Assembly (NCBI GenBank): GCA_965153455.1
Contig: OZ234494.1
Location: 5,828,001 to 5,892,000 of the forward strand
Reading direction: 5' to 3'
From: Sphagnum compactum
Taxonomy: Eukaryota
Length of the DNA stretch: 64,000 nucleotides
Positions 2,455 to 48,723 of this stretch are shown here, one piece after another; the first letter of the stretch is position 1; each line of letters starts with the position of its first letter. Under the pieces are notes generated by a model. The model made no database searches. It was not told the DNA's origin and was given only the letters and a program-made list of their open reading frames with translations. The position numbers and the translations under genes are program-made.

Positions 2455-3463
2455 GGCATGCCCTCAACACAGACCACAACTACAGCAAACAAGATTGGTG
2501 TTTCCAGGTCCTACATTACTTTTGACTTTCTTTTTCGGTTCTGGGAGGAGCATATCTCACATGACATACATTCATATAGAGCTGAGTAGTAACTACATTG
2601 ATTCTTGGGATTTAAATTTGCTCAGCAACTATTATCAGAAAGGGTCTTACATGTTGCAAAACATGGGGAATTGCCAATTCTGTAGGATTCTTATTTCTGA
2701 ATTACATCCTAAAATTTATAATGACAAGTGAGGCAGATTGCTGGCATGATTAATAACATGTCTAACATCCTCACCCCATCATAACCACACACTAGTGTTG
2801 TCTGGATGCTCCTGTCAATAGACAACAGAAGTGGTAATTCCGCCCCTGGTTTGAATACTCTAATATTGGTCACACCAAAAGATCATTCCACAAACCTGTA
2901 TCATACAGGCATATTAATAGTCAGTGGGCTATTGCCAACTCTCCATTGCCTTCTGCTTCATGATGGTTTGACCAAACCCTGCAGAATATGCTCCATCTTC
3001 GAATGGTAAATGCTAATGTATACAAGCACTACTTTCTTCACTTTCATTGCCAAAACTCTCGGTTTTTCTGTGGACACTGGCCTACCACAGTGTCTGAATC
3101 TCTCCACTCTCTTGGTTGTTTGCATATCTCGGATCTCAGATGCGTTGACATACAACAAGAATCTTGAAACAAAAACCATCTGAATGAAACCACAGCATAC
3201 ACAAACAGTACAAATCATGCTCACATCACTGGACCAGCTCCAGGCAAAACATTCATAAAACAAAAAATAGTGACTCAGATAATATCAAAAGAGAAAGTGG
3301 ATGAACTGTCCCTAGAAAACACTCATCTCATGATGAGAACATCATGTGTAATCGACTTGGTTTCTCCAGATTTCCTACAAGTGTGCTTGCTGTAGTAGGC
3401 TTTAGGCAAAGAGGAGTTCTCCATGAGGTTGTTCAGGTTGTAAAAGTGTACGTATCCTTAGCA

Positions 3464-5508
3464 CTACAGTGTTTTGGCTTTGATTGGTTGCTTCTTCCTC
3501 ATCATCTGACGAATTGCTGAGTTTCTCATGCCCAAAAAGAATAAAAGAGCTCCAAAAAGTGACAAATTCTGCATACAGAATGATGTGCACATGTTATAGA
3601 CAGACGTTGCAACTCAGGAAGCTATTTCCATGAAACCAACCAGGTAATCTCCTTGAATGAGAACTTTTTTCCATTATGTTATATTCTAACAGAGTCAAGA
3701 AACCAAAAAGTGTTTCAATAAGTATGCATCAATGTTTACCTTCAAGAAAGAGTTGAACTGATGGAGGTAATCAGGACTCGCAAGATCATAATTGTAAAAA
3801 TCATGTATAATTGGTGTTACTGCAGCCAAGAATATGAGCTACACAGAAACAGAATCACACCAGAACTTTATTTGGAGTTGCAATTTCTCTTCTGTTTTGA
3901 TCTCCCTAACCTTTGCTGTTTAACCCTGTTATCTACCCTAACCTCTCTTCTCCAAAAGCCCTCTACTCAAAAAAGCTTTGAAGAACTAGTCTTGTTCCAA
4001 CAAGTTTCTCTGGTGTGCATCCCATTTGTCAAAAGCTATCCATACATGTGAAGTTGTGTGAACAAACTGTGGTGTAAATACTGAAACTAGAAAAGACTGT
4101 TGCAGGAAAGTCTTAGTATGCATATTACTCACCAACAAATAGGCACCCAAGCTGCTGCCCAAGATGAACAAAAGACCACCTACACCTTCCAGCACTATCG
4201 CTGCCATCAACAAATGTTTTGTCTGCAATCAACATCCAACAAGTGGTCAGTAGAGCATTACTCTTCAAAACCTGCATTAGTTGAAACTAGAGGGGCCAAA
4301 GCTCTTGCCCTAAAACTGGCACTAGCTGAAACTAAGGGGATCAAAGCACTTGCACAAAACCTCACTAGTTGAAACTACAGGGGCAAAAGCTCTTGTGTAA
4401 AAGCCACACTAGTTGAAGCTCTTGCACATCTTAGTAAGATCAGGTGGACGATGCAAAAATAAGTCTAGGTCTAGCAATGTTGTTCTTTCTTAAGCCAAAA
4501 TTAATCATATATATCATACTCAAATACTCTCTTGCAATGGATTTCAAGCAAAGGGAAGAGGGGACTGAAGCTTGTGCCTGCACACCTCAACATTTTGAGG
4601 TAGAGAAAAGTTGACATTGAACATCTCATTGACATTCTTTCTGAACAGCTCAAACTTCGGGTTCAGGGCATCCAAAGCAGCACCTCCATTTTGGCCGAAA
4701 CCCTGGATTCTGAGGAATAAAACAACAAACACATGCAAGCACATGCAAAACAACAATCCTATCATAAGCAGAGGCATTCAGAAACAAATGCCTGCATAAA
4801 ATAAGAGTGTGACCAGATGGATAGATAGACCACCCTGCAGGTTCACATACTCAACCCTGCTGGAGAATGCTTGATGGCCAGAACAGCACATCCTACTCAA
4901 TAAACATGTTCTTCTGCTTCTAAACACACGCACTCTCTCTCTCTCTCTCTCTCGCCTGCTTCTCTCGGTGACGCTTATTTGAGAGAAAGAGAGAGAGAGA
5001 GAGAGTCTTTGCCAAGACTAATGACAAGCTCCGGACTTCGACCTAGCAAATGCAGAGGATCAAAAACACACACACCTTCACAAGGGGGCTAAAGCCGCGG
5101 CGATGAAAAACGACTCTCAGCAAGGCCACCACGCAGTTCAGCAGCAATATGACAGGAGGGAAATACAAAATCACAATCAAGAAAATTTCCTAGACAAAAT
5201 ACAACCTACAACTCTCACAACAGCAGCAGCAACAGACGCCAATAACAACGACGACGACAACACAGGCAATCAAAGCCTCCGAGGAGACTGAGGCCAACAA
5301 CAGTTACCAATAGAAGAAGAAGAAGCTTTTACCGATGGAAGAAGTTTTCACAAAAACAAAACAAGAAACAAGAAACAAACTCCGTCCGCTATGAAGAAAA
5401 TGGAATGCTTGTTTTTGTGTTTTTCCCCCCCCCCACTTACTTCTGCCAAGCAGCGAGAATAAAGATGGCGGAGAAGGCCACACGGCCTATGAAGGACAGA
5501 AAGCCCAT
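3464..5508 (-). CDS. HR-like lesion-inducing family membrane protein (DoxX/SURF4-like). Exons 5508-5441, 4709-4586, 4222-4133, 3838-3740, 3568-3464
   Basis: Spliced product MGFLSFIGRVAFSAIFILAAWQK...TKHLLMAAIVLEGVGGLLFILGSSLGAYLL...VTPIIHDFYNYD...NLSLFGALLFFLGMRNS...KAKTL*, typical of this plant family; frame-consistent GT-AG junctions. Confidence 0.88.
4275..4428. repeat. ~43-bp tandem repeat (about 3.5 copies) in an intron
   Basis: Recurring CTAGTTGAAACTA.AGGGG..AAAGCTCTTG unit. Confidence 0.7.
4933..5005. repeat. (CT)n followed by (GA)n microsatellites
   Basis: Direct reading of the sequence. Confidence 0.8.
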
Positions 5509-9638: not shown

Positions 9639-9811
9639 CGGTTATAACCATGGTTTGTGGAAGTTTTAACCATCGTTAGTGAGCGCTTGACTCCTGGTTT
9701 CTTTAGGTCTTGGGTGTTAGGGTTTGAGGAAGGAAGACCTCTGAGCAAGCCGCGCGCGCTCTAGCGTTCAGTGTTTTGTTGTTTGCAGATCGAGATCCGC
9801 GGTACACGATC

Positions 9812-28734: not shown

Positions 28735-29054
28735 TTTGGCCTTGCCTACCAAGAGAAAGATATATAGTGTTCAGATTCATTATAGAGTATAGTAGCTTAA
28801 GAAATTTTGGTCCCTAGGTAGGAGGTCTATTTTGATATGAGGATTTTTGAAAGCTGATATTTTGGCTTGTGTTGAAACTTGAGATTAGTTTATAGAGTTA
28901 TGATATCTTGAAGGATTTTTGGTTTCGTTTTAGAGGATTTTTTTTTGAAAGATTACATTTTTGCATGGTGAAATATTTGAATTTTCATCATTCGTCTTTT
29001 GCCTTAAGATACTTTTTAATGTAAATGGCAAGGCCACAGTGTGACACACCCCTT
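28735..29054 (+). mobile_element. Non-autonomous Helentron-like (HINE/DINE-1-like) element, copy A
   Basis: subTIR TGGCCTTGCC 28737-28746 / GGCAAGGCCA 29027-29036, then stem-loop GTGTGACACAC and CCCTT end; homologous to copies B-D. Confidence 0.7.
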
Positions 29055-29881
29055 GTTGTGTTTTGTTTGTTATTCTTCATATCACAAACCGTGTGTGTCG
29101 GTGTGTGTGTGTGTGAGAGAGAGAGAGATGTGTTCATGAGAGAAAAAAATGATAATGAAAATGTTTGTCAGCTGGCTTTCTTTGCACATGTGTGTGATTA
29201 GGTGCATGTTTTGTTTCTTTTCACCCATGAGACTATTTTTGTCTCCTTTTTCAAAGTATTTTTTTTAACCTCGAGGCTTGAATATACATACATTACATTC
29301 ATATATGTCTACATGGGAGGATCTCTTATTGCTTCACTTTTTGTTAATTGTTTTGGTAGTCTGAAGGTGTGACATGCTCCATATGTTATGTATTAAAGAA
29401 AACCCTAATCTAGTTAGGGTTAGGTGTTTCAATTAGCCTTCCAAAAACCCATATCCGTATATATATGATCCTATTATAAAGGACAAACATGTGTTGAGTT
29501 TATGTAGTGATACAAGATTTGTCACTCCTAAATTCATGATTTTTGCATCACTAAGGTCATGGTCGATATTGTGGACTCTAGGATTATATGACGGCCTTTA
29601 GTTGTGTCCTTAAACCCTAAACCCCAACTAAAGGGCGTCATGGGTAGACCATAGTGCATCCATTACACCATCGTTCAATAGCCAGGTTTGTCAAGTCTCT
29701 CATGAATAATTATTTAAATTTGAAATTTCCATTTCAACAACTAAAATATTCCAAATATTTCAAAAAATATGTATTATTTTGCTTCACCAAAATAAAAATC
29801 TTTTGAGAAAAAAAATTTGATTTAAAAAATAATAATCCCTAAAAAACATTACTTTTGATTGGAAATTTTACAATTAATAAT

Positions 29882-30233
29882 AAGGGGTGTGTCACACTAC
29901 GGTGGCCTTGCCATATTTACATTGAAAAACTATATCTTAAGGCAAAAAGAAAAATTGATGGAAATTCAAATATATTTCACCATGCAAAAAACATAAATCT
30001 TTCAAAAAAATTCCTCTAAAACAAACCAAAAATCCTTCAAGAGATATCATAACCCCATACCTAATCTCAAGTTTCAACACAAGCCAAAACATCATCTTTC
30101 AAAAAACCCTCATATAAAAACAGACCTACTTACTAGGGTTTAGGGTTTAGGGGCCAAAAGCCCTGAAGCTACTACTAGACTCTATAATGAATCTAAACAC
30201 AATATCCTGGCCTTGGTAGTAGGCAAAGGCCAA
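29882..30233 (-). mobile_element. Non-autonomous Helentron-like element, copy B (inverted relative to copy A)
   Basis: Reverse complement aligns with copy A/D over the full length; includes the internal IR CCAAGGCCA and an inserted (TTTAGGG) tract. Confidence 0.7.
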
Positions 30234-30641
30234 TAAACTGTTGTATTGGAATGCTCAATCACATGAATGATTGACTTTGTTTTTGTTTTGTTTTGTTTTC
30301 TTCATCAAGGGAGAATCAATCTGTGCTTGTCTGCTCCCAGCTTTCTAAGATTTTCTCTTTCCCATGGAAGATTTTAGCACAACAAAAAAGCTGAAGCTTC
30401 AAAATTTGCACTTGGTGGGTCATCATAAGTACTACTGGAAGCACCCACAATCCAATGCAAAGTTCAAAAATGGGTTTCAGCTACTTACCAGAAAAAACAA
30501 ACACACAACTTCTGACATTCTAATACCCTATTCTCTATTATTGGATTGTTTTCCAGACTCTTCCTTCTTCTAAGTTCTCACACTCCTCTCTGCTAGCCTA
30601 CAATGTATTAACAATCTGTGCATTGACCAACAAGATCCACA

Positions 30642-30645
<4 letters not shown>

Positions 30646-30681
<36 letters not shown>
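30646..30681. repeat. (AC)n microsatellite
   Basis: Direct reading. Confidence 0.9.
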
Positions 30682-30683
<2 letters not shown>

Positions 30684-32202
30684 CTTATATATAACTTAGA
30701 TCACCAAATTATCATTGGAGTTTGGAATGTTGGGAAGTTTATTTTTTGGGTTTTTGTAGCTACTTTGATAACAACTTTCTCTGTTCTTCTGGGTTTTGGC
30801 AAAGTTTTGAAATCAAAGAACCCCCAGTTCTTTGTGTATTCTAAGAAAAACATTATAACCAATCGGTCTTTGGATTTCAAGACATTTTCAAAGAACCTGT
30901 GGGGGGTTTTTCCTGAAATAACCAGCAAGGCAAAGAACCCGGGTGGTTCAAGGTAGTAGGTTCTTTGACAGGTTCTTCTTTGGGGCTTTTTTAGAACCGT
31001 GGTTCTGGGTCCAAAATCCAGTTCATTGCTTTTTTGAGAACCATCGGTCATGGGTTTATATACCCTAAACCCTTTAGGTTCCAGTTCCTTACACCCTGTT
31101 AAGTACCCACTGAGGAGGACTCCAAATTTCCTCCTCCCAACCATCCCCACATTTGATATGTTTATCATCAAATGCGAAGACATGAGACATGCATGCTACA
31201 AGTGTAAAAATCATCTATGGCGTGTGCTAATTTGTTTGCTCTATTGAAAAGTAGAGCTCCTTTGGGTGTCTAAAAGTAATGACCTAACTTGTAAGAGCAT
31301 AAAATAAATGAACTTCAAGGGAGAATGTAATATGTATGTGTGTACTTACACACAATGTAGACATTTTATTTTTCAAACAAGTTTTCTATTTTCAATCTCA
31401 TTGTTACCAAATACTCACTGTGTCATTCACTTATGAGTATAATTTGAACCCTATTTTATTCTTTAATAATTTCAAATTACTGATGTGGAAATTGAAGTAG
31501 CTTTCAACTTTATTTACACAATGCATTATAATGTATTAGTGATTTTTTTGGCGTTTCTTCAATTATCAACATGGTACATGAGTTGTTACCAAAACTTTTC
31601 CCTCCCTCATGTTTCCAAAGGGAAGATGATGAAAGTCTGGAGACGAACAACCGCTGACACTCATTGTGTGAACTACTACCCGTTTGGGACCAATCCTACT
31701 GAGCAATGAAGAAGGTCCTTTCTTCCTGGACAAAATTAGACAGAAACAACCATCCATCCATCCAGTTCCTGTAAAGCCGTAACTAGTTGGGCTTTAAAGT
31801 ACTCAGATTGGAATGTGATGAACACTTCTCTCTCTCTCTCTCTCCAACAAAAAGCTGCTCTCTCTCTCTCTCTCTTCGGTATTCAGAACAAGCTACTCAT
31901 AATAATCGTGTAATTGCAGCTCTTGCCCCCACCCCCCTTATAATGATGGCAAGTTCAAACTCCAAACAAACCCAAAGAGTTTAAAATTTTGGAAAAAAAT
32001 GTTTCATGAAGTTCCCAACAGAATTTTTTCAACTCAAAGTGAAACACTAACACACGGAGCTCGTGAACATTATTAACTCCCAAGTTCAAAGTTCAAATCA
32101 AACCAGCAACAAACAAACAAACAGGCAAAAAGAGGCGTATCTTAAGGGAAAAGAAGAGTCGTGGAAACTCAAATATTTCCCCATGCGAAAACATACCATA
32201 GT

Positions 32203-32410
32203 TACCTTGGCCATTTCAACACAATGTCCATTGAGAATAATTAATTAATTAATTTTGAAAATTTTATTTCAACAAAATGGAATAATATTCCTAAATATTT
32301 ACTAGTTTCCTACACAATATTTTTTTTTTTGGTTTGGAAGAAAGAAATAATTTTCGAGAATTTCAACATTTCTAAAATGCAATGTAATTAGTGTCAAATT
32401 GGCCAAGGTA
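32203..32410. mobile_element. MITE-like element (~210 bp) with ~20-bp TIRs
   Basis: TACCTTGGCCATTTCAACAC ... GTGTCAAATTGGCCAAGGTA; AT-rich interior; related degraded copies at ~29680-29880, ~43805-44015, ~48172-48360. Confidence 0.65.
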
Positions 32411-32743
32411 CTAAGGATGATGGCATGGGATGGATGGGGGGACCGGATGGGGTGTGGAGAGAAGGTCTACTATGTATGTTTGGATGGATATGCAATTCTT
32501 TTAGGAAATTTTCAATATGGTTTTTTGGGCCTCTTGAATGGATTTGTCAGATACTCAGTTGCCGAGAGTACTCTCGTAGTTAAATAAATAAATAAATAAA
32601 TATTCACTCATGGACAACTCGGATGAGAACAGTGTACAATTTACATTATTATTATTAATTATTTTTAGAGTACATTTGCTGAAAAGGAAAGCTGCTTTTG
32701 CTGTCCATAAAGAAACTTCTATCCATGTACATACAAAACAAAC

Positions 32744-32977
32744 AAGGGATGTGTCACACTTGCCATTTACATTAAAAAATTGTATCTTAAGGCCAAAAAA
32801 AGAAGAATTATGAAAACTCAAATTATATAATTTCACCATGCAAAAAATATATAATCTTCAAAAAAAAAATCCACTTAAAAAAAAACCAAAATCCTTCAAG
32901 ATATTATTATAACTCTATAAATTAATCTCTAGTTTCAACACAAGCCAAAATATCATCTTTCACAAACCCTCATAAAA
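32744..32977 (-). mobile_element. Non-autonomous Helentron-like element, copy C (5'-truncated)
   Basis: AAGGGATGTGTCACACTTGCCATTTACATT...GTTTCAACACAAGCCAAAATATCATCTTTC matches the reverse complement of copies A/D. Confidence 0.7.
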
Positions 32978-35900
32978 GGGAGAGGAGCTCTTCCCCCTCC
33001 CTATGAACAAGACAATTTAGTGCCAAATCCAAAGCACCAATACGAATCAAACTGAATTTGCTCAGATGCAATAATAGTCCTGTGCATAACAATAGTTCTC
33101 AGCACCTTTCATGAAGTCTGGAAACAAGCAGGCTTTTTCTCTGTCACACCCGAGTGTGTAGTATATATATATATGCACACGGATTGGGCTTCTTTCTTGG
33201 CTAACACTGAGGACTTGTAAGTACTCACTTGCCCATCGAGGAAGAATTTTACCAGCCTGTGTGCTTTTTTTTTGGGGGGTCAATTTTGTGACGAAGTCAA
33301 AGTGGTGATGATCCGAAGGAGGAAGATTTTAAGTCAGATTTGGGCTACAAGCTAAATAAGAAAGTAAATTTATTTTTTGATAAAATTTCTATTTTTTTGG
33401 CTACATACTTGAACCGTCATGAATAGAAATGTGGTGTGCTTTTCACTAAAATGCTGGTTGAATCATGGCTATTGGAATGTTTTTGTTGATGGGATATAAT
33501 CCTGGGTTGGGTGATCTCAAATTGTTTTTGGTGATTTGAAAATTTAAAACACACATGTTTTGTTGTTGTAGTTTTTTTTTTTTGTGTTATGCAAGTTCTT
33601 TTTTTGCACAATTTTTTGTTGTGTTTTGCTTTTTGTTTTCTAAGCTTGGATTTTTTTTTTATTATAGATGAGTCGTATTGGTTTGGATATGGTGTACCAT
33701 TCAAGACATTTCTATGTTGTGTTATATATGTAGCGACAATGATGTTTGTAGGCACTAATATAGGAACACACAACGAGGTTTCGAATGGATGGCACATTGG
33801 TTCGTGTTACATCACATAATCCCAATCCATAAATACATTAATATTTTATTACAAGGTTGAGAAGGGTCTAATAAAAATAGTTTGTTTTTCTTTTATTATG
33901 GTTTATTGGCCAATTTTCTTCTATTTAGTTGAATTGGCTTTGAGAAATGAGCTTACAACTTCACACTTGACACAAAACATCTTCTCAAAATTTAGGAGTC
34001 CATGTCCTTAATTGTTAAGTATTTGCTATTAAAATGGATTTACAATGATGTATTATTTTTAATCTTGAATTTGAGTTAGATCAATAAGATATCCTTAAAA
34101 ACATCCCTAGCATCTTTGTTGTTTCATGCCCAATTTTTCGTTATCTTTAAAGTTAGCCACACTAGGATGAAACCCCATAATTACGAATGAACACCAAAAG
34201 CTCATCTTGAAGTTTTTATCAAATCAAGAGCTTAACAAGCCTACCTATAAATTCTCATGGAAAATTTCATTCATCACCAAAAACATGAATTGTTTACAAC
34301 CATTGTCAACATGAAACAACTTTCAAATCCAAGATGGAACTTATGGTTGTGAATCCAATTGGAGATATTAGTGAATTGGAAAGTTCCCAAGATAACTTCC
34401 CCTTCCTTCAATGTGACAAAGAGTTTTCCTTTCAAGAGCAACCACATTTCCTTCACACTCTTTGACTCGATGGGTTTCAAAATTTGATTATTCATAATTT
34501 CCTTCATCTTTAAGTGCAAAATCACCATCCAAAACAATGATCTTGATCCTTGCATTAGCTTCTAACCACTTAGACGCAACTAGGCTTAAATTGACATGCC
34601 ACAACAGGATATGAATTGTTGATCCATCCTCTCCTTCAATTTTTGACCCTACAATTAAGGTTCGGGACAACCTATTTTTTAAGTTGAGTTGCAAAATTAT
34701 TTCATCAAGGGACCTTGAATCCTCCTTGGTAACAAAACATGCACACGACACATATCAACAAACATCTTAAACATTATTTCATCCTTAACAACTAGTGCAT
34801 GGAGAAACCAATATGCTAGTTGCCCAATCTTTTAAAATTGAAGTAGACACAACATTCTAACATTAAGATGTGTACAACATAAAAATCAAAAAGTTGGATG
34901 ATGCATACTCTTTACACTATGTTAATCCTTGTTGAGACTTCACCATGCATAACATCTTCACAAGAAATGTGCTCTTGTGCAAACATTTATGAGAGCAAGC
35001 TCTTTGAAACTTTCACAAGAGATGGAATCTCATTAAGAAAAAAATGATTTTAAATTGAATCCTAAACCCAAGGCATCTAGTGCATGCATAGGGGTATCGC
35101 TTGTTCCAAGGATAGCCTTACTAAATCATTGTAAGAAAACATACTAATCAACAAGAATGACGAGAAAAAAAATTCATGTGAAATCACAAAATAGAGAAAA
35201 TTTTGAATCCAAGGAATAATATTTCTTATAGAGTTTCAACTCTGGTTGGGAAATTTGTGAAACATGCAAAGTGAAACTCCTCTTTTATTTGCATTAAAAC
35301 ATTGTTATTTATCACTTATGATAAACTTGCATCATGATTCTTCAAATAATGAAAATCATGGTATGACAAAATTACATGAGAAGATTGGTAATGAATAAAA
35401 AATGAAATAGATAATTAAACCATAGTCAAAGAAATTATGTTCATAAGAATCTCAAAGCATGAGACTAACCACATTGGATGACAACAATTCAAAGTTTGGT
35501 AATGGCTTTTGGTTATTATCCACCTTCATCGCTTCCATAATAAACACCATGTAAAAGGAAGAATATTAACAACAAACTCTAGGTTCAAAATGTAAAGGTC
35601 ATTTCTTTCACATGAATAAATTAGGAAATAATTTGAACAAAGGGGTCCATTCACAATTGGGGTACCAAAAAAAGGAAAAAGGACTCCAAAATTTTGTTAG
35701 GGCTACTTTCTACAACTACCATTTATATGAAACAAATTTAAGTAAAAACAATTAAATAGTCCACAATACGATAATTCATGCGGTTGTGGTGATTTTTCAC
35801 ATGTGTAGATAATTGTGCATGAATATTTTGCTTTACAATTTTAAACACAACAAATGTCAAAATGAGTTTTTTAATCAACTAAACATGTTTTTCTGCATGA

Positions 35901-39464: not shown

Positions 39465-39800
39465 TTGGCCTTGCCTACTTACTACCAAGGCAAGAAGGAT
39501 ATTGTGTTTAGATTCATTATAGAGTATAGTAGCTTAAGGGATTTTGGCCCCTAGGTAATAATGGGTCTATTTTTTATATGAGGATTTTTGAAAGATGATA
39601 TTTTGGCTTGTGTTGAAACTTGAGATTAGTTATAATAGAGTTATAATAATATCTTGAAGGATTTTGGTTTCTTTTAGAGCATTTTTTTATGATTATAATT
39701 CTTGCATGGTGAAATATTTGAGTTTTCATAGTTCTTCTTTTGCCTTAAGATACCTTTCAATGTAAAATGGCAAGGCCACAGTGTGACACACACACCCCTT
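39465..39800 (+). mobile_element. Non-autonomous Helentron-like element, copy D (best preserved)
   Basis: TGGCCTTGCC 39466-39475, internal IR CCAAGGCAAG 39485-39494, GGCAAGGCCA 39769-39778, GTGTGACACAC stem-loop, CCCCTT end. Confidence 0.72.
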
Positions 39801-40533: not shown

Positions 40534-41622
40534 TCACCTGGACGAGTCCACCACAATGGGCTTGGTTTCTTCATCAAGTGCACTTGGCTTGTCGTAGCCT
40601 GGTCCTCCTCCTCCTCCTCCTGTGAGCTGTAGCGTTGCCTCTTCATCATCATCATCTTTAACTGTTGTTTTGGTGGTTGCGGGACTGAGTTGGGTCTTGA
40701 TAGATTGGGTTGTTGTCGTGGATTGCTGATACAAAACACCTCCAACAATGGTGAAGAGAAGGCAAATCAAGCCTGGGAAACTAGCGTGCTTGTCCCATAT
40801 CAACACATTGATGACCACTGTAAGCAGCTTGTTGACAACTCCGGTAACTGTGAATGCGGTTGCTGAGATTGCCTTCCGTGCAGCAAATCCAAAGAAACTT
40901 ATTGCTAATCCGAAGAGGCACGAAAGCGCCACCGCAACGAACGACACACTCCAAGGTCTTACCTCTAGAAACATGGCATCGGCGATGTCTTTGTACTCCC
41001 CCATGGCAACCCAGAAGAAGGGAGATAGCATGAGAGACAGCAAGTTATTGTACAACACAAAACCCCACGTATTGAGCCCAAGATCCATCACAATGTGCTT
41101 GATGTAAACCATTTCAGTGCAGATGGTGACAAGATAGGCAAGCGCCCAGGAGTAAGCCGTCAGTGTAAAGGCGGAGTCTGTAATCACATAACCCACAGCT
41201 CCCGCGAGAATCACTACCAGAGAACCAAAGGTATACTTGGAAGGTAACGCTTGTTTTCGGAATGCAGAGTCTGCGAGAGCTACCAGTAGAGGCGTGGATG
41301 ATCTGAACACGATGAAGGTGTCGACATTGGCGTGTTTCAATAGATTTGTGTTGGTGAAAATTGCGAGGTAGAAAACGAAAGCTGCTGGGAGAAACTTCTT
41401 AGCCGTGCTCCAGACGAAAGGATCGTGATCGATAAGACCGATCTTTCCTGCCGTCCAGACTCCAAGCACACTCGTCGCGTATTGCAGTGCCGTCAGAAGC
41501 CCCGGAAACGGAAAATACGTGATTGCGTACTTGTTGATCACAGCGAGCAAACTGGAGCAGAGCGCGTATCCTACCACCACTGTGACTGTTCCGTAGGTCT
41601 TGATATCCCCTCTGGCTTTCAT
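40534..41622 (-). CDS. GFT1: Golgi GDP-fucose transporter (GFT1/GONST4-type nucleotide-sugar transporter), intronless CDS; alternative start at 41652
   Basis: VVGYALCSSLLAVINKYAIT, GLLTALQY, KKFLPAAFVFYLAIFTNTNLLKHANVDTFIVFRS, ARKAISATAFTVTGVVNKLLTVVINVLIWDKHA, closely matching plant GONST3/4-GFT1. Confidence 0.9.
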   Translation of the reverse strand: MKARGDIKTYGTVTVVVGYALCSSLLAVINKYAITYFPFPGLLTALQYATSVLGVWTAGKIGLIDHDPFVWSTAKKFLPAAFVFYLAIFTNTNLLKHANVDTFIVFRSSTPLLVALADSAFRKQALPSKYTFGSLVVILAGAVGYVITDSAFTLTAYSWALAYLVTICTEMVYIKHIVMDLGLNTWGFVLYNNLLSLMLSPFFWVAMGEYKDIADAMFLEVRPWSVSFVAVALSCLFGLAISFFGFAARKAISATAFTVTGVVNKLLTVVINVLIWDKHASFPGLICLLFTIVGGVLYQQSTTTTQSIKTQLSPATTKTTVKDDDDEEATLQLTGGGGGGPGYDKPSALDEETKPIVVDSSR

Positions 41623-41974
41623 TGTGTACCAGATCTTGTCTCTTCGTCTCATACAAAGAAGAACAAGCCAGCCACCACTCCCCCGCGACGACGACTCCCT
41701 CGGATGATGAATCCGCGGATTCGGAAGAGAGCAAGCAGTCGAGAGCAGCACGAGGAGTCAAGAAAGAAAGAACGGGCTTAGAATTTTCTATTGACAAAAT
41801 TTCTTGTCAATTATTCCTTCCTATCGGAAACCGAGTTTCTTCGCTTGCAAAGATCGACAGCAAATCTGAAGATCAAGCTGGAAGCTGCTGTGGGCAATGA
41901 TCGCAGTCCACAGATCACAGCAGCAGGTCATCGATCACTAAGAAATCACTGCTTCTTGCAATGGACTTTAGAAC

Positions 41975-42415
41975 AACTCAAATCTCTTCAAGAAACCGAG
42001 TTTGCACTTGCTCTCTGCACTAGACTCCCGTAGAATCTCAACTCAAATTTCTTCAAGAAACCTGCGACACTTTCTTTCTGCACTAGAATCCCGTAGAATC
42101 TCAACATAAATTTCGTCAAAAAACCTCTGCACTTGCTCTCTGAACGAGAATCCCCGTAGAATCTCAACTCAAATTTCTTCAAGAAACCTCTGCACTTGCT
42201 CTCTGAACTAGAATCGCGTAGAATGTCAACTCAAGTTTCTTCAAGAAACCTCCGGCACTTGCTCTCTGAACTAGAATCCCGTAAAAGAACTCAAATCTCT
42301 TCAAGAAACCTCCACAAGGTCTTGAAACTTGCTCTCTGAACTTGAATCCAGCACAAGAACTCTTCAAATTTCTTTCTCAAGAAACCTCTGCAAGTGTTGA
42401 TCTCTGAAGCACGTA
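41975..42415. repeat. ~60-bp minisatellite (about 7 copies) upstream of GFT1
   Basis: Unit AACTCAAATTTCTTCAAGAAACC...GCACTTGCTCTCTGAACTAGAATCCCGTAGAATCTC. Confidence 0.85.
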
Positions 42416-43338: not shown

Positions 43339-44839
43339 ACTGTTTGCACTAGAGCGACAGCAAACGCAACGCTCCTCTCTTCCTCATCATTTCCCGAAAG
43401 CGTTTCCGAGAGGGTGAAATCAACGGTCGTCGTTTGCTTCTGGGGTTCCAATCCAACGGTCCAAAATTTCCTACCTGCAATTAGGTTTTCCTGAGATTAC
43501 TTGAAAACGCCGAGCGTTCGATTTCCTATTATTATCTAGTCACATGATCGACGGCTCAGTTTGATCCACGACATCCAAAAGGGGATTTTCTCTGAAACAG
43601 GTTAATGAAACAAACCTTGCATTATTATTCAATTTTTATATTAAACAGATTTATTTATTTATTTATTATTTGAAAAAAAAAAAAAAAAAAACTCTTTGGC
43701 CATTTGTGCCATGTTTAGACTTCAGTTGTCTTTTTTGCGACTTTTGGGGGGGGGGGGGGGGGGGTGGGGGGGCTTTTTGTCTTTTTCTTTTTTTGGTTGG
43801 TGAAATCGTGCCATGTATGGTAGCTTGACACATATTTGTCAATTAATTAATTAATTATGAAATTTTCATTTTGAAAAACTAAAATATTCTTGAATATTTT
43901 AAAATGTTTTCCTTTCACAAATTTTCTTTATCTGGGAAAAAAAAACAGAATTTGAATTTTTTTAAAATTTTCTAAAAATAATATAAAATTTAGTGTTGAA
44001 GCTACAAAGGTAGTAGGGTATACCATTGCTAAATGCTTTTTACTAAAGATTTAGGGTTTTCAAAAATTGACTTTTCTTACTCAAAATTTTGGAAAATGGG
44101 TGCAAATAAATGGCCCAATTTTGAAGTTACCTAACTATTAAACATTTAGGGGTTTTTTTTTTAATGAACTCTTCTTAGTTAAAAATTTGAAAATGGGTGT
44201 TCATGAATTGCCCAATTCAAAGGAAGTATTAGAAATTTAGTGTGTTTTTAAATGGAATTTTGTTATTTGAAAATGGGTATGAGGGGGGTTTTTAATAGAC
44301 TTTTCTTAAGTGAAAATTTCAAAAAGTGTGTGAATGGATGGACCACTTTGAAGTAAGCTACATTTAAGCAACATTCACACATTGCTTTTACTAATTTAAA
44401 AACCATAGTTCGAATTGTGTAAGTTTTGCACAATCAAATTAACCTAAGTAAGTTGCGAGAGATATTGAATTATTTTGAGTAATGTTGGGTGAGGGTATAG
44501 TGAGGTACATTTTATAGGTGAAATCTAGGGAGGACAAAGGGGTTAGGATTTTTGTTTTTTTTAAAAAAAATTCTCATAAGTTTTGTTATTTTGTTATGAG
44601 GTTTCAATGGGTATAAGGAATGGATAATTTAATTAGATTAAAAGAATTACAAGTTGGAAGTGCAACTTCCTTGATAGTTTGGACGAATAATGACATAAAT
44701 GATTCACATTTTATAATCATGTAACAAACACAATCAATATTGAGCACTATGATTTACGATCTAATTTTGTAATTCAATCATGTAATGGATCAAAACAAAA
44801 GTCACAATTTTTAAAAGATTAAAATTCACAAAATCATCA

Positions 44840-47690
44840 TATTCTATGATGATGGAAGAATTTGAATATTGTAGTTTACTTAAACAATTAAATATAGGAC
44901 AAAGATTAATATTTGATGATGTTATAAATAAAAAATTATTATACCCTAGTACATTGATATGTTTATTTTTGACATGGGGTGTTGGAACTATCACGGATCC
45001 CAATGCCATGGAATTTGTCCATTTGAATGATCATCCATGACTTATAATAAACTTGTAACTAATTTTTAATTAAATTTTTGTTCACTTTTAGTTAACTTCC
45101 AGTTAAGTTTTTATTCATTTGCACTTGATACATAGTTCACTTCCAATTAACTCTTAGTTGACTATTAGTTAAATTTTAATTCAATTCTAGTTAACTTTTA
45201 ATTAAATTTTAATTACGTTCAAATTAAGTTTTAGTTAACTTTAGTTAAGTCTAATTAAGTCCCAATTGACTTTCAGTTAAATTTTAGTTAACTCTTAATT
45301 AAGAAGGTCCTCAAGAAGCTTTTATATTCGATGCACACATAAAAGTCTCTTTGAAAGCTTCCTTGAACTAGGTTCCCAAAGGAGTATAAATAAAAGTTAG
45401 ACATTTCATTTTTTTTAGTTTGTTCAACACCAATTTTAGGCACAATCTTGCACTATAGCCTTGTCATGTCTTTTCATGTTCATGTTTGCATAAGTTAGAA
45501 TAATAAATATATGTTTTCATGTTTATCTTGCACATCTCGTGTTCTTGTTTTTAGTTCTCGTGTTCTTATTTTTTAGTCACATAATTTTGTTTTGTTCCTT
45601 GTTTGAAAGTTAGACTTAAACCTTTCTTTTAGCCTTTGTTATTGTGGTTATTTGTGTCTTTGACATGAATTAGTAAAACTTTTACATTAAAACTCATAAT
45701 TTAAAAAATATTATGATTGTACAATAATGACATGTCTTCTGACTTAACAAAAACCAAGGCTTTATTTATGACATCAATAGGTAGAATTGCCTTCAATATT
45801 GATGGTTTAACAATACATTCAACATTGAACATACATATCCAACAATCCTTATCTAGTTTATCAAACTTATCATCAAATTCATTAAATAGGCTTACATGTC
45901 GATATGAACATTACAACTTGTTGTGACGGATGAAATATTACTTGTTGGTGCTAGAATGTTTAATGTTATAAATAATAAGTTAAGGTCCATAAAACACATT
46001 CAAAACAAATTCTTTGGTGGTGTTGATGTTATCATGAGAGGTGATTTATATTAAACACCCCTTGTGAAAGATAATTGGATCTTTCAAAATATCAAAATAA
46101 TGTTGATGCATTAACACCAATTTTTTGGCAAACATATGAATTCAATATGTTATGAATTAAATAAAGTTATGTGAAAGTTTGATATGGTTTTTATACAAAC
46201 TTTGAACAAATTTTGTATTGCAACAAAAAATACAAGGGATATTCAATTTATAAATTCAATTTGTAATCGACAATCACCCAACAATTTACTATTCCATATT
46301 TATTTTTATACAAATAAACTTGTGCAAAAACATAATGAAAATGTGTTTACTAACACATTAGGTTTCACATTTATTTTCAAAGCAATGGACGTCAACCATC
46401 ATTCATGCTCGCCATTTTACAAATTTTCAAATGATTTGAATAAACTACAAGTTTGCATTTTTCAATTCATATAAAAAATATATATGTTGGTTGAATTATG
46501 TGTTAGTAAATGTGCAACATCTTATGGTTTTATGAATGGAGCTGATTGCATTTTTAAAGCATCAACAACATGTTATGAAAAATCCATTATATGGAGAACA
46601 TTTTAAATTTTAAAATTGGAACATTAACAAGAGAAAAATATAGTCATCATTATGATAACAACATTGAATCAATATGGGCACCAATTGAACCTATCATCAA
46701 AGATATAAAGTGTTGGTAAATCCAAATCATTATCATAATAAGGATTTAATTTCCAATTCAACTTGCAGCAACAAGAATCATCCATTGTTTTGAGGGATTA
46801 TCATTAGATATAAATTGGTTTTTGATCTCACTAATGTTTAAAAACATGGGTTAACATATACAACATAATCCTACATTTGAACAAAAGAAAACCTATTTTT
46901 GTTAATCCTCCTCTAACATGGAATTTTTGTGTGGATCCAAGAGTACAAATAGAAATGAATAGATTGAAAAAAATTACAACTTGGATATCATTAATTCCTC
47001 AATTTAAAGACTTACATAATTCTCATGTAATTGTATAAGTCTTGAATACAACTTCTTGCACCAACATTATAAAGACATCAGTCATGATCATAACCTTTAA
47101 ATGTCTCATATCTTACGTCTTATAAACACAAGAATACACCATGCATCAATAGATGTGCACAAATTTATCAATTCGTCGAAGCATTCATATATTTCAATCA
47201 TGACGGTCATGGGTCAATGATGATGTGTGACATGCACATGCACTTAAATTCTTTCAATATAATAACTAGTGATAGTTTAAAATATATAGTAGCAACTTTT
47301 AATTTTAGTACACGAAAAACAATACATATTGTATGTGTGCATAGAGTTCATTCATGTTCAATTTTTACATTCCTAAATAATTTTCAAACTATAATTCAAC
47401 ATTCTCTTGAACATTGTTTGATCATCATTGTGGGAGATTTTAATGTTGACATTTTAAAAACAAAAACCAAGCCAAAAAAAAAAAAACTATTAGATTTATA
47501 GATAAATTCTAATTGAAATCATAATTAAGTGAAAACATGACAAAAATTGGACCTCAATTAAACCATATATGGGCAAATGTCCATAGAAATGAATGCAATC
47601 TAATGTAATAGAAGCATATTTTTCAAATTTTCATAAACTAATTTATATTGCATTCAAATTATCAAACACACTTTCAATGTATAAAAAAAA
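44840..47690 (+). mobile_element. Decayed Helentron (Helitron-class) gene: PIF1-family helicase fused to an AP/EEP endonuclease; pseudogenised
   Basis: LNIGQRLIF, FLTWGVGT|SKTFTLK (Walker A), MTSIGRIAFNIDGLTIHS, VVTDEILLVG, FFGGVDVIMRGDLY*, ELNKVM*K.DMVFIQTLN, FYTNKLVQKHN, GFMNGADC, *FPIQLAATRIIHCFEGLSLD, KHGLTYT; followed by IIVGDFNVDIL, QLNHIWAN, SNFHKLIY; many stops and frameshifts. Confidence 0.85.
44989..45665 (+). mobile_element. Solo LTR (~677 bp) inserted in the helicase Walker A codons
   Basis: Ends TATCAC (TG>TA) ... TTGACA, degenerate 5-bp TSD GGAAC/TGAAT, internal TTAAC/GTTAA repeats and TATAAATA at ~45386; removing it restores the helicase frame. Confidence 0.75.
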
Positions 47691-48723
47691 AAACCATTAA
47701 TGTCTCCATTTATTTAAAGTGTAGTGTTTATGATTATATGCATGTAAATGTTGCATTCCACCTAATTAATTATTCCCAAAATGTTGAAACCTTGTGGCCT
47801 AGATTTGCATTTTTACATTTTTTTTCATGGACCATGTGCAAAAAAAATAATCATAGATATCAATAACAAGACAAACAAAAATTTGAACAATTTTTTTAAT
47901 CCACACATACACCCATCAAACATAATAACATAATAGCTTTCATGGAAAACCCTAAACTCAAAATGTGACAAAAACAGAGATAAAAGTTGCCAAACTTAAA
48001 CTTTATGTTGTAATCAATATATTTAATTCAAAGTATGAGCACAAGGACTTGTAATCATTAAACCCTAAATTAAGCTCTAGATTAGTAGGAATAAATAGGA
48101 TTTCAAAAGCAAATAGCCCATTAGGCAAAGGATTTTGAAGGGGAAATAATTTGTGAATTAAGGATTATCATAGTACCTTGGCAATTTCAACACATGTTTC
48201 TCGAATATTAATTTATTTTGAATTTATTTTTTTCATTTTGACAAATACAATATTCTTGAAGATTTAATATTTTCCTTCACAAATTGTTGTTGTTTGAAAC
48301 ATTTTTTTTTTTGGAAAAATCTCAACACTTCTGAAAATAATACAATTAATGTGGAAATGTTCATATGGTGTGGAATGGCAAATATTAGAAGGAAGTATTG
48401 AGACAAATACGGTAGCCTACGGTCAGTTTCCACATTGACAAAATGAATAATTTATTTTTTTCAAAAAATGAATTCACTTTTTTTTTTAAATTTAAATTTT
48501 TTTCATCATCTATTATAATATTGTGATATAAAGTAGTGAAATTATTCAAAGTGTAGTAGCCTATTGATAATTATGATGATTTTCAACATTTCAACTTCAT
48601 ATTTCCACAAATTTTCATTTCACTATTTTGAGGATTATTTAATGACAAAAACTGTATGTCAAAAAAAGCATAGAGGACATGTTCTTTCATCATAAAGTGA
48701 AAAAAATAAAAAAATAAAAAATA

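Follow-up and report, generated by a model that had tools for sequence, protein, structure and literature searches.

Evidence for a dead Helentron copy with an internal deletion, from an endonuclease-bearing family in the moss Sphagnum compactum

Introduction

A stretch of 64,000 nucleotides of the Sphagnum compactum genome (assembly GCA_965153455.1, contig OZ234494.1, positions 5,828,001 to 5,892,000 of the forward strand; hereafter the window) contains an ordered series of PIF1 helicase motifs, followed directly by motifs of an AP/EEP-type endonuclease. The question raised by this locus is whether it is the remnant of a Helentron, as was originally predicted from the sequence alone, or a helicase pseudogene that happens to lie next to an unrelated endonuclease fragment. 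The older view that land plants are without Helentrons was overturned in 2024 by the HELIANO study (Li et al. 2024, PMC11417382), which reports HLE2 elements in 13 land-plant species, with 555 insertions in Sphagnum magellanicum and 3367 in Taxus chinensis; the abstract of its preprint uses the name Helentron for the land-plant elements. The presence of Helentron/HLE2 elements in land plants, including Sphagnum, is therefore already published and not new in itself.

Results and discussion

The decayed helicase-endonuclease region

Motif mapping on a three-frame translation placed all PIF1 and EEP motifs on the plus strand in the expected order, distributed over three frames between 44978 and 47637 and interrupted by stops and frameshifts. 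Motif I (Walker A) is split (44978-44989 and about 45672-45689), and is followed by motifs Ia (45771-45824), II (45917-45949), III (46028-46051), IV (46154-46171), V (46750-46797) and VI (46845-46865). The endonuclease motifs are N (47039), the E region (47110), two further motifs (47202 and 47328), GDFNVD (47424-47450), LNHIW (47558-47572) and SNFHK (47623-47637). The fragment 45908-46051 matches Pfam PIF1 above cut-off (E=1.5e-6); the EEP fragment 47094-47498 falls short of a Pfam EEP match, and the corresponding part of a sister copy matches PF14529 (E=1.3e-7). Because of sequence decay, relevant Pfam matches are absent from 12 of 17 single element fragments, even at E up to 0.5. The intact protein P0001, which has PIF1 and EEP in a single frame, is colinear with 45720-47691 in a tblastn comparison, with 248 bits for the highest-scoring piece and a summed E of 5e-90; when the codons of the region were shuffled 50 times, the score did not exceed 28.5 bits. 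The motif series of the original prediction is thus borne out, both by its order on the plus strand and by alignment to a related protein.

The decayed homology extends from 44687 to 48003 on the plus strand, wider than the 44840 to 47690 first reported, and is preceded by a remnant of 5' non-coding DNA at 44480-44668 (positions 745-925 of the family model, 79% identity, E=3.5e-36) that forms the left side of an internal deletion. The segment 44687-44988 covers the end of the linker between Rep and helicase and the start of PIF1, ending within motif I after its first half, as judged from blastn to sister copies, motif position and tblastn with residues 1362-1435 of the intact protein P0408 (E=8e-6). 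The rest of the helicase, from the second half of motif I to motif VI, occupies 45672-46990 (Pfam PIF1, tblastn with P0001 and P0408, motif positions). The decayed endonuclease at 47020-47697 derives from the same ancestral ORF as the helicase, of which it formed the C-terminal part (tblastn with residues 451-670 of P0001, PF14529 on the sister copy, single ORF in P0001 and P0408), and the part of the 3' non-coding region at 47698-48003 ends about 350 bp before the 3' terminus of the family. Positions 44687 and 48003 were considered as element termini and rejected, as sister copies continue on both sides in the alignment.

Walker A is interrupted by a solo LTR of 678 bp, derived from an LTR retrotransposon (44989-45666, plus strand), with an internal 11-bp tandem array, flanked by a decayed 5-bp target duplication (44984-44988 and 45667-45671, three of five bases alike). 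The LTR had been recognized in the original prediction, and its nature is clear from several sides: the segment is missing from sister Helentron copies (blastn), it forms a repeat family of its own (853 candidates) whose other copies have TG..CA ends and 5-bp duplications, and at one locus (L105) an integrase match (rve, E=3.7e-7, under cut-off) lies between two direct LTR copies 3.9 kb apart. The best relatives among the 40 of 853 candidates scored are only 74-80% identical, below the identity of the Helentron sister copies. The LTR must postdate the Helentron copy, yet its relatives are more diverged than the Helentron sisters; the 11-bp array may be fast-evolving.

A multi-copy family of about 12.7 kb

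A 2-kb core gave 236 first-look candidates in the 382-Mb genome, of which the 40 scored are 81-88% identical. In 34 of these 40 places, the window included, a single alignment spans the boundary between helicase motif VI and the EEP domain. Sister copies run past the window piece on both sides to common 5' and 3' ends, and a full-length copy of 12.7 kb lies at about G000:C4:11549638-11562315. The copies differ from the family model by a K2P distance of 0.085 +/- 0.009 (n=20), and C>T plus G>A changes make up 1869 of the 3671 substitutions, which we take to reflect one old wave of transposition followed by methylation-type decay. A genome search for an intact copy with Rep came out negative for the candidates scored: stops occur in 83 of 84 genomic matches to P0001, the exception being 89 aa long (66 of 1455 candidates scored), and a DUF6570 search yielded no open frame longer than 341 aa (150 of 244 candidates scored). 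Metagenome contigs scanned with P0001 gave no confirmed locus among 62 pattern matches.

Two diverged, decayed PIF1-EEP Helentron subfamilies, 41-45% identical to P0001, were encountered as well (L149, C12:5413614-5415248; L153, C15:5241900-5243723). They branch beside the family of the window, which points to several Helentron waves in the moss. At two other loci on different chromosomes (L127 and L131) the 3' flanks are nearly alike, reflecting either insertion in one repeat or duplication of a segment after insertion.

From 5' to 3', the element consists of TT, an 11-bp subterminal inverted repeat (subTIR), non-coding DNA, ORF1, a repeat-rich spacer, OTU, DUF6570, Rep, PIF1 and EEP, followed by a non-coding stretch of about 700 bp, the 3' subTIR, a short weak palindrome and CTTG. 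This domain order was seen in four real long copies compared with intact P0408, and in the family model compared with P0004, P0006, P0007, P0009 and P0013. DUF6570 is above the Pfam cut-off (L027:7033-7557, E=2.5e-8) and OTU under it (E=0.02). The Rep region of P0408 aligns in copies C4, C8 and C9b and in part in C18; the HUH and Y-x3-Y motifs of Rep are kept in the family model, and a HUH-like motif is present in a real copy (L033). The endonuclease motifs N, E, Y, GDFN, LDH and DFH are likewise kept in the model. Given these kept motifs, the ancestral element was probably competent in both Rep and endonuclease functions. The EEP domain ends the ORF and is followed by no ORF of at least 80 aa in the family model; no GIY-YIG domain was detected in the family fragments scanned.

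ORF1 is short and could encode an RPA-like single-strand-binding OB fold, as faintly suggested by a DUF223 match (Pfam, E=0.06) and by RPA/DUF223 neighbours in the Atlas at 0.90 with low recognition; a PDB profile search gave chance matches only and no RPA, and the AlphaFold pLDDT for the ORF1 alignment is 36. The spacer between ORF1 and OTU (about 2980-4100 of the family model; L165:2391-2717) carries a dispersed motif in both orientations, resembling the central repeats of HINE/DINE-1 elements.

In living relatives, the long ORF is a single fusion: P0408 (2117 aa, intact) carries OTU-DUF6570-Rep-PIF1-EEP in one ORF and is 44-61% identical along the family model. P0428 (KAH9329253.1 of Taxus chinensis, annotated as a partial hypothetical protein) has Rep-PIF1-EEP in one ORF. 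The single-ORF fusion is thus a property of intact relatives, and the decayed copies display the domain order only. One database protein (P0003) has two near-identical helicase copies before its EEP domain, and looks like a tandem duplication or an assembly artefact of a Helentron.

Ends and target site

The 11-bp subTIR (GGCTCTGTCCT / AGGACAGAGCC) is found within three mismatches at 12 of 16 5' ends and within two mismatches at 24 of 30 3' ends. The right half of the 5' subTIR folds back onto an adjacent inverted repeat, forming in L065 a hairpin CTCTGT-CCT-ACAGAG that overlaps the subTIR (z=-2.45; 3 of 200 shuffles fold as well). At the other end, a palindrome GTGGC-AGA-GCCRC is conserved just before the terminus, with weak folding (z=+0.71; 158 of 200 shuffles as good). 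The 5' TC, 3' hairpin plus CTRR and A|T insertion of canonical Helitrons were not observed at the family ends examined.

The 3' junction is TTGTT in 28 of the 29 ends located in 30 loci, and the 12 5' junctions are TTGTT (seven), TTATT (four) and TTTTT (one). A survey of 10 end pairs, three without a located 5' end and one with an incomplete one, identified two empty paralogous sites in the sequences compared, TTA|TT (L076/L123) and TTG|TT (L172/L108), neither with a target duplication; the TT may be the element's or the host's. A 5-bp TTRTT target duplication was considered and rejected, since 5' junctions vary between G, A and T and 3' junctions are nearly all G, and since the pentamer is present in single copy at both empty sites. 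The target is similar to the 3' junction of the element itself, as would be expected of HUH nick-and-join. Five insertions (L108, L111, L172, L068 and L072) lie in the TTTG tract of one short interspersed repeat, which is the source of one of the empty sites.

By analogy with Helitron and HUH biology, we propose that Rep would recognize the repeated CAGAGCC-type end motif and nick at the TTG|TT junction of the element, after which one strand would be peeled off by the helicase. This strand would enter the host DNA at a TTR|TT site resembling that junction and be joined there, so that no target duplication would arise. The endonuclease would most likely serve to nick or process the T-rich target, in line with the hypothesis of Thomas et al. 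2014 (PMC4067079).

Relationship to other helicases and endonucleases

In a helicase tree of 56 rows (quick IQ-TREE), the window copy and the family model fall in a 10-row clade (SH-aLRT 100) that includes a Taxus chinensis protein and lies within rows carrying Rep, DUF6570 and EEP. This clade is far from the canonical Helitrons of the same genome and separated from them at SH-aLRT 100; a grouping with canonical Helitrons, which would have spoken against the original prediction, is not seen. The HLE2 labels of the tree neighbours derive from domain content, in trees composed without cellular PIF1 and without Repbase-labelled Helentrons, and the supports are SH-aLRT values from quick searches or FastTree local values. 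Larger FastTree runs (263 rows for the helicase) join the family with Taxus P0428 at 0.993 for Rep and 0.92-0.99 for the helicase; both P0408 and P0428 are within the clade of the family, and the named matches outside it are from animals. In an EEP tree of 35 rows, which excludes eight chosen outgroup rows with no usable EEP piece, all 12 of the 12 corresponding rows group together (SH-aLRT 89). The agreement of this tree with the Rep and helicase trees implies that the endonuclease descends together with RepHel.

In all three trees, whether of Rep, helicase or endonuclease, the family is placed with the Taxus chinensis Helentron, which hints at one old land-plant lineage. Since the named hosts are two, Sphagnum and Taxus, we put forward such a land-plant clade as a hypothesis. 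It would have been passed down from the time at which mosses and seed plants diverged, and its target, TTR|TT, would be sequence-specific and a copy of the element's 3' junction; its members would be the Sphagnum fossil, the diverged Sphagnum subfamilies and the open Taxus frame, with intact relatives such as P0408 still extant. Our confidence in this full proposal falls somewhat short of even, and horizontal transfer between plants, or non-plant members within the clade, are possible alternatives to vertical descent.

Alternative explanations and the history of the window copy

Taken together, these data make it very probable that the locus belongs, as a dead copy with an internal deletion, to an autonomous family of Helentrons (HLE2 rolling-circle DNA transposons) in Sphagnum. 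Its ancestor of about 12.7 kb would have spread in one old wave, after which the copies decayed mainly by C>T/G>A changes. The window copy itself, without Rep and without ends, would also be compatible with a canonical plant Helitron (HLE1) or a cellular PIF1 pseudogene followed by a separate LINE endonuclease fragment, the more so as canonical Helitrons are plentiful in this genome (398 candidates) and Helentron endonucleases are themselves described as LINE-derived (PMC4067079); family membership therefore rests on the sister copies. These carry the Rep, DUF6570 and OTU domains, the subTIRs and the TT-type insertion that support Helentron identity, and their ends are not of the TC...CTRR type at A|T. 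Since helicase and EEP are joined by one alignment in 34 of 40 places and form one ORF in the intact relatives, the endonuclease is not a LINE insertion. Nor does any further ORF of at least 80 aa follow the EEP domain in the family model, and the traits of APE-type LINEs (reverse transcriptase after the endonuclease, 3' tail, target duplication) were not found in the family. The helicase is far from the HLE1 elements of the genome, and multi-copy dispersal, linkage to Rep and defined ends speak against an origin from cellular PIF1. The composite reading is refuted by the helicase-EEP linkage, and we give it hardly any probability. Still less credible is a domesticated or functional helicase-endonuclease gene, for which one might cite an intact nucleotide-sugar transporter gene nearby, the copy lying about 3 kb upstream of it. 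For this copy the reading is refuted by the many stops, shared by nearly all genomic matches, by the LTR in Walker A and by 30 gap openings relative to the family model. None of these gaps is divisible by three, although some may be errors in the model.

The original prediction had further stated that Rep is not visible and that the copy is probably truncated at its 5' end. The loss of Rep stands, as no HUH Rep is present in the window copy; a simple 5' truncation does not, since the 5' non-coding remnant at 44480-44668 (model 745-925) directly adjoins the pre-helicase linker at about model position 9665. This implies an internal deletion of about 8.7 kb, comprising ORF1, OTU, DUF6570 and Rep. 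Both termini were lost as well: neither terminus, terminal motif nor subTIR was found within the window. In the Helentron reading preferred here, the copy would have lost the 8.7-kb segment and both ends, and gained the solo LTR, in place. That it moved as a non-autonomous deletion derivative, or was carried in by another element, seems unlikely. Such derivatives are common, as in L018 and L070, too, the helicase region follows directly on 5' non-coding DNA, and the divergence of the window copy from the family model (K2P 0.104) is among the highest. However, the derivatives differ in their breakpoints, the 44668/44687 junction of the window occurs in none of 19 sister loci, and no terminus is left in the window; a mobile derivative would in any case alter the history of the copy, not its identity. 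The left breakpoints of the deletion derivatives (L018, L070 and the window) cluster within the initial 1-1.2 kb of the element, a part with G-rich runs.

Genomic neighbourhood

The transporter gene (40534-41648, minus strand) is intact and intronless and of the GDP-fucose/GONST4 type (Pfam TPT). Its protein is 97% identical to a protein in a 90% cluster with Sphagnum jensenii and S. troendelagicum entries, and a 63-bp tandem array lies upstream of the gene at about 41970-42390. A short interspersed repeat is present in several copies and both orientations at 28760-33000 and 39500-39750 (inverted pairs I2-I5 and I7-I10).

Significance

The present analysis fully delimits an endonuclease-bearing plant Helentron family with respect to ends, target site and domain order. 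In the literature searched, which lay outside subscription papers and Repbase, only the HELIANO paper and its preprint treat HLE2 in Sphagnum, and neither an EEP-bearing family in Sphagnum nor TTR|TT as a target rule nor a moss-conifer clade was found described; figures of the HELIANO paper may already show endonuclease-bearing plant elements (PMC11417382). What the Helentron endonuclease does is described as undetermined (PMC8788227), and a plant lineage that has naturally intact members and whose target, TTR|TT, is defined would make its role testable in a tractable moss. The results also carry a warning for annotation, as proteins of this kind are recorded under 'PIF1 helicase' or 'exonuclease III'.

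Comparison with known systems

The Helentrons and DINE-1/HINE elements described by Thomas, Vadnagara and Pritham (2014, PMC4067079) share with the Sphagnum family a Rep-helicase-endonuclease fusion, an OTU domain and a separate ORF that in the Sphagnum family may be RPA-like, as well as 11-bp subTIRs, an inverted repeat nested in the 5' subTIR and TT insertion without target modification. Compared with the elements as described there, the Sphagnum family differs in its moss host, in a junction that, at the ends examined, is a fixed pentamer TTR|TT and not a T run of variable length, in a short and weak 3' stem-loop, and in a C-terminal EEP motif that is one residue longer, with DYH/DFH-K-P in place of SDH/TDH. 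The land-plant HLE2 elements of HELIANO (PMC11417382) agree with the family in their Sphagnum and Taxus hosts, short inverted repeats and TT sites; in that report DUF6570 is named as HLE2 marker, and endonucleases are enriched in subgroup b, a subgroup with land-plant members. HelenSM92 of S. magellanicum is described there with autonomous copies of about 16-19 kb and a GIY-YIG domain, and by this description, not by sequence, is set apart from the present family of about 12.7 kb.

The canonical Helitrons (HLE1) of the same genome, such as L137, also encode a rolling-circle transposase of Rep plus PIF1, but L137 lacks DUF6570, OTU and EEP and belongs to a distant helicase clade. Two long open Helitron_like_N frames (L137 and L138) were accordingly rejected as members of the family and assigned to canonical Helitrons (150 of 398 candidates scored). 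Intact RepHel frames of 1638 aa occur in L137 and at G000:C2:12137612, C11:894807, C7:10551275 and other places, and their equal length suggests recent HLE1 activity, whereas the Helentron family in the same genome has decayed.
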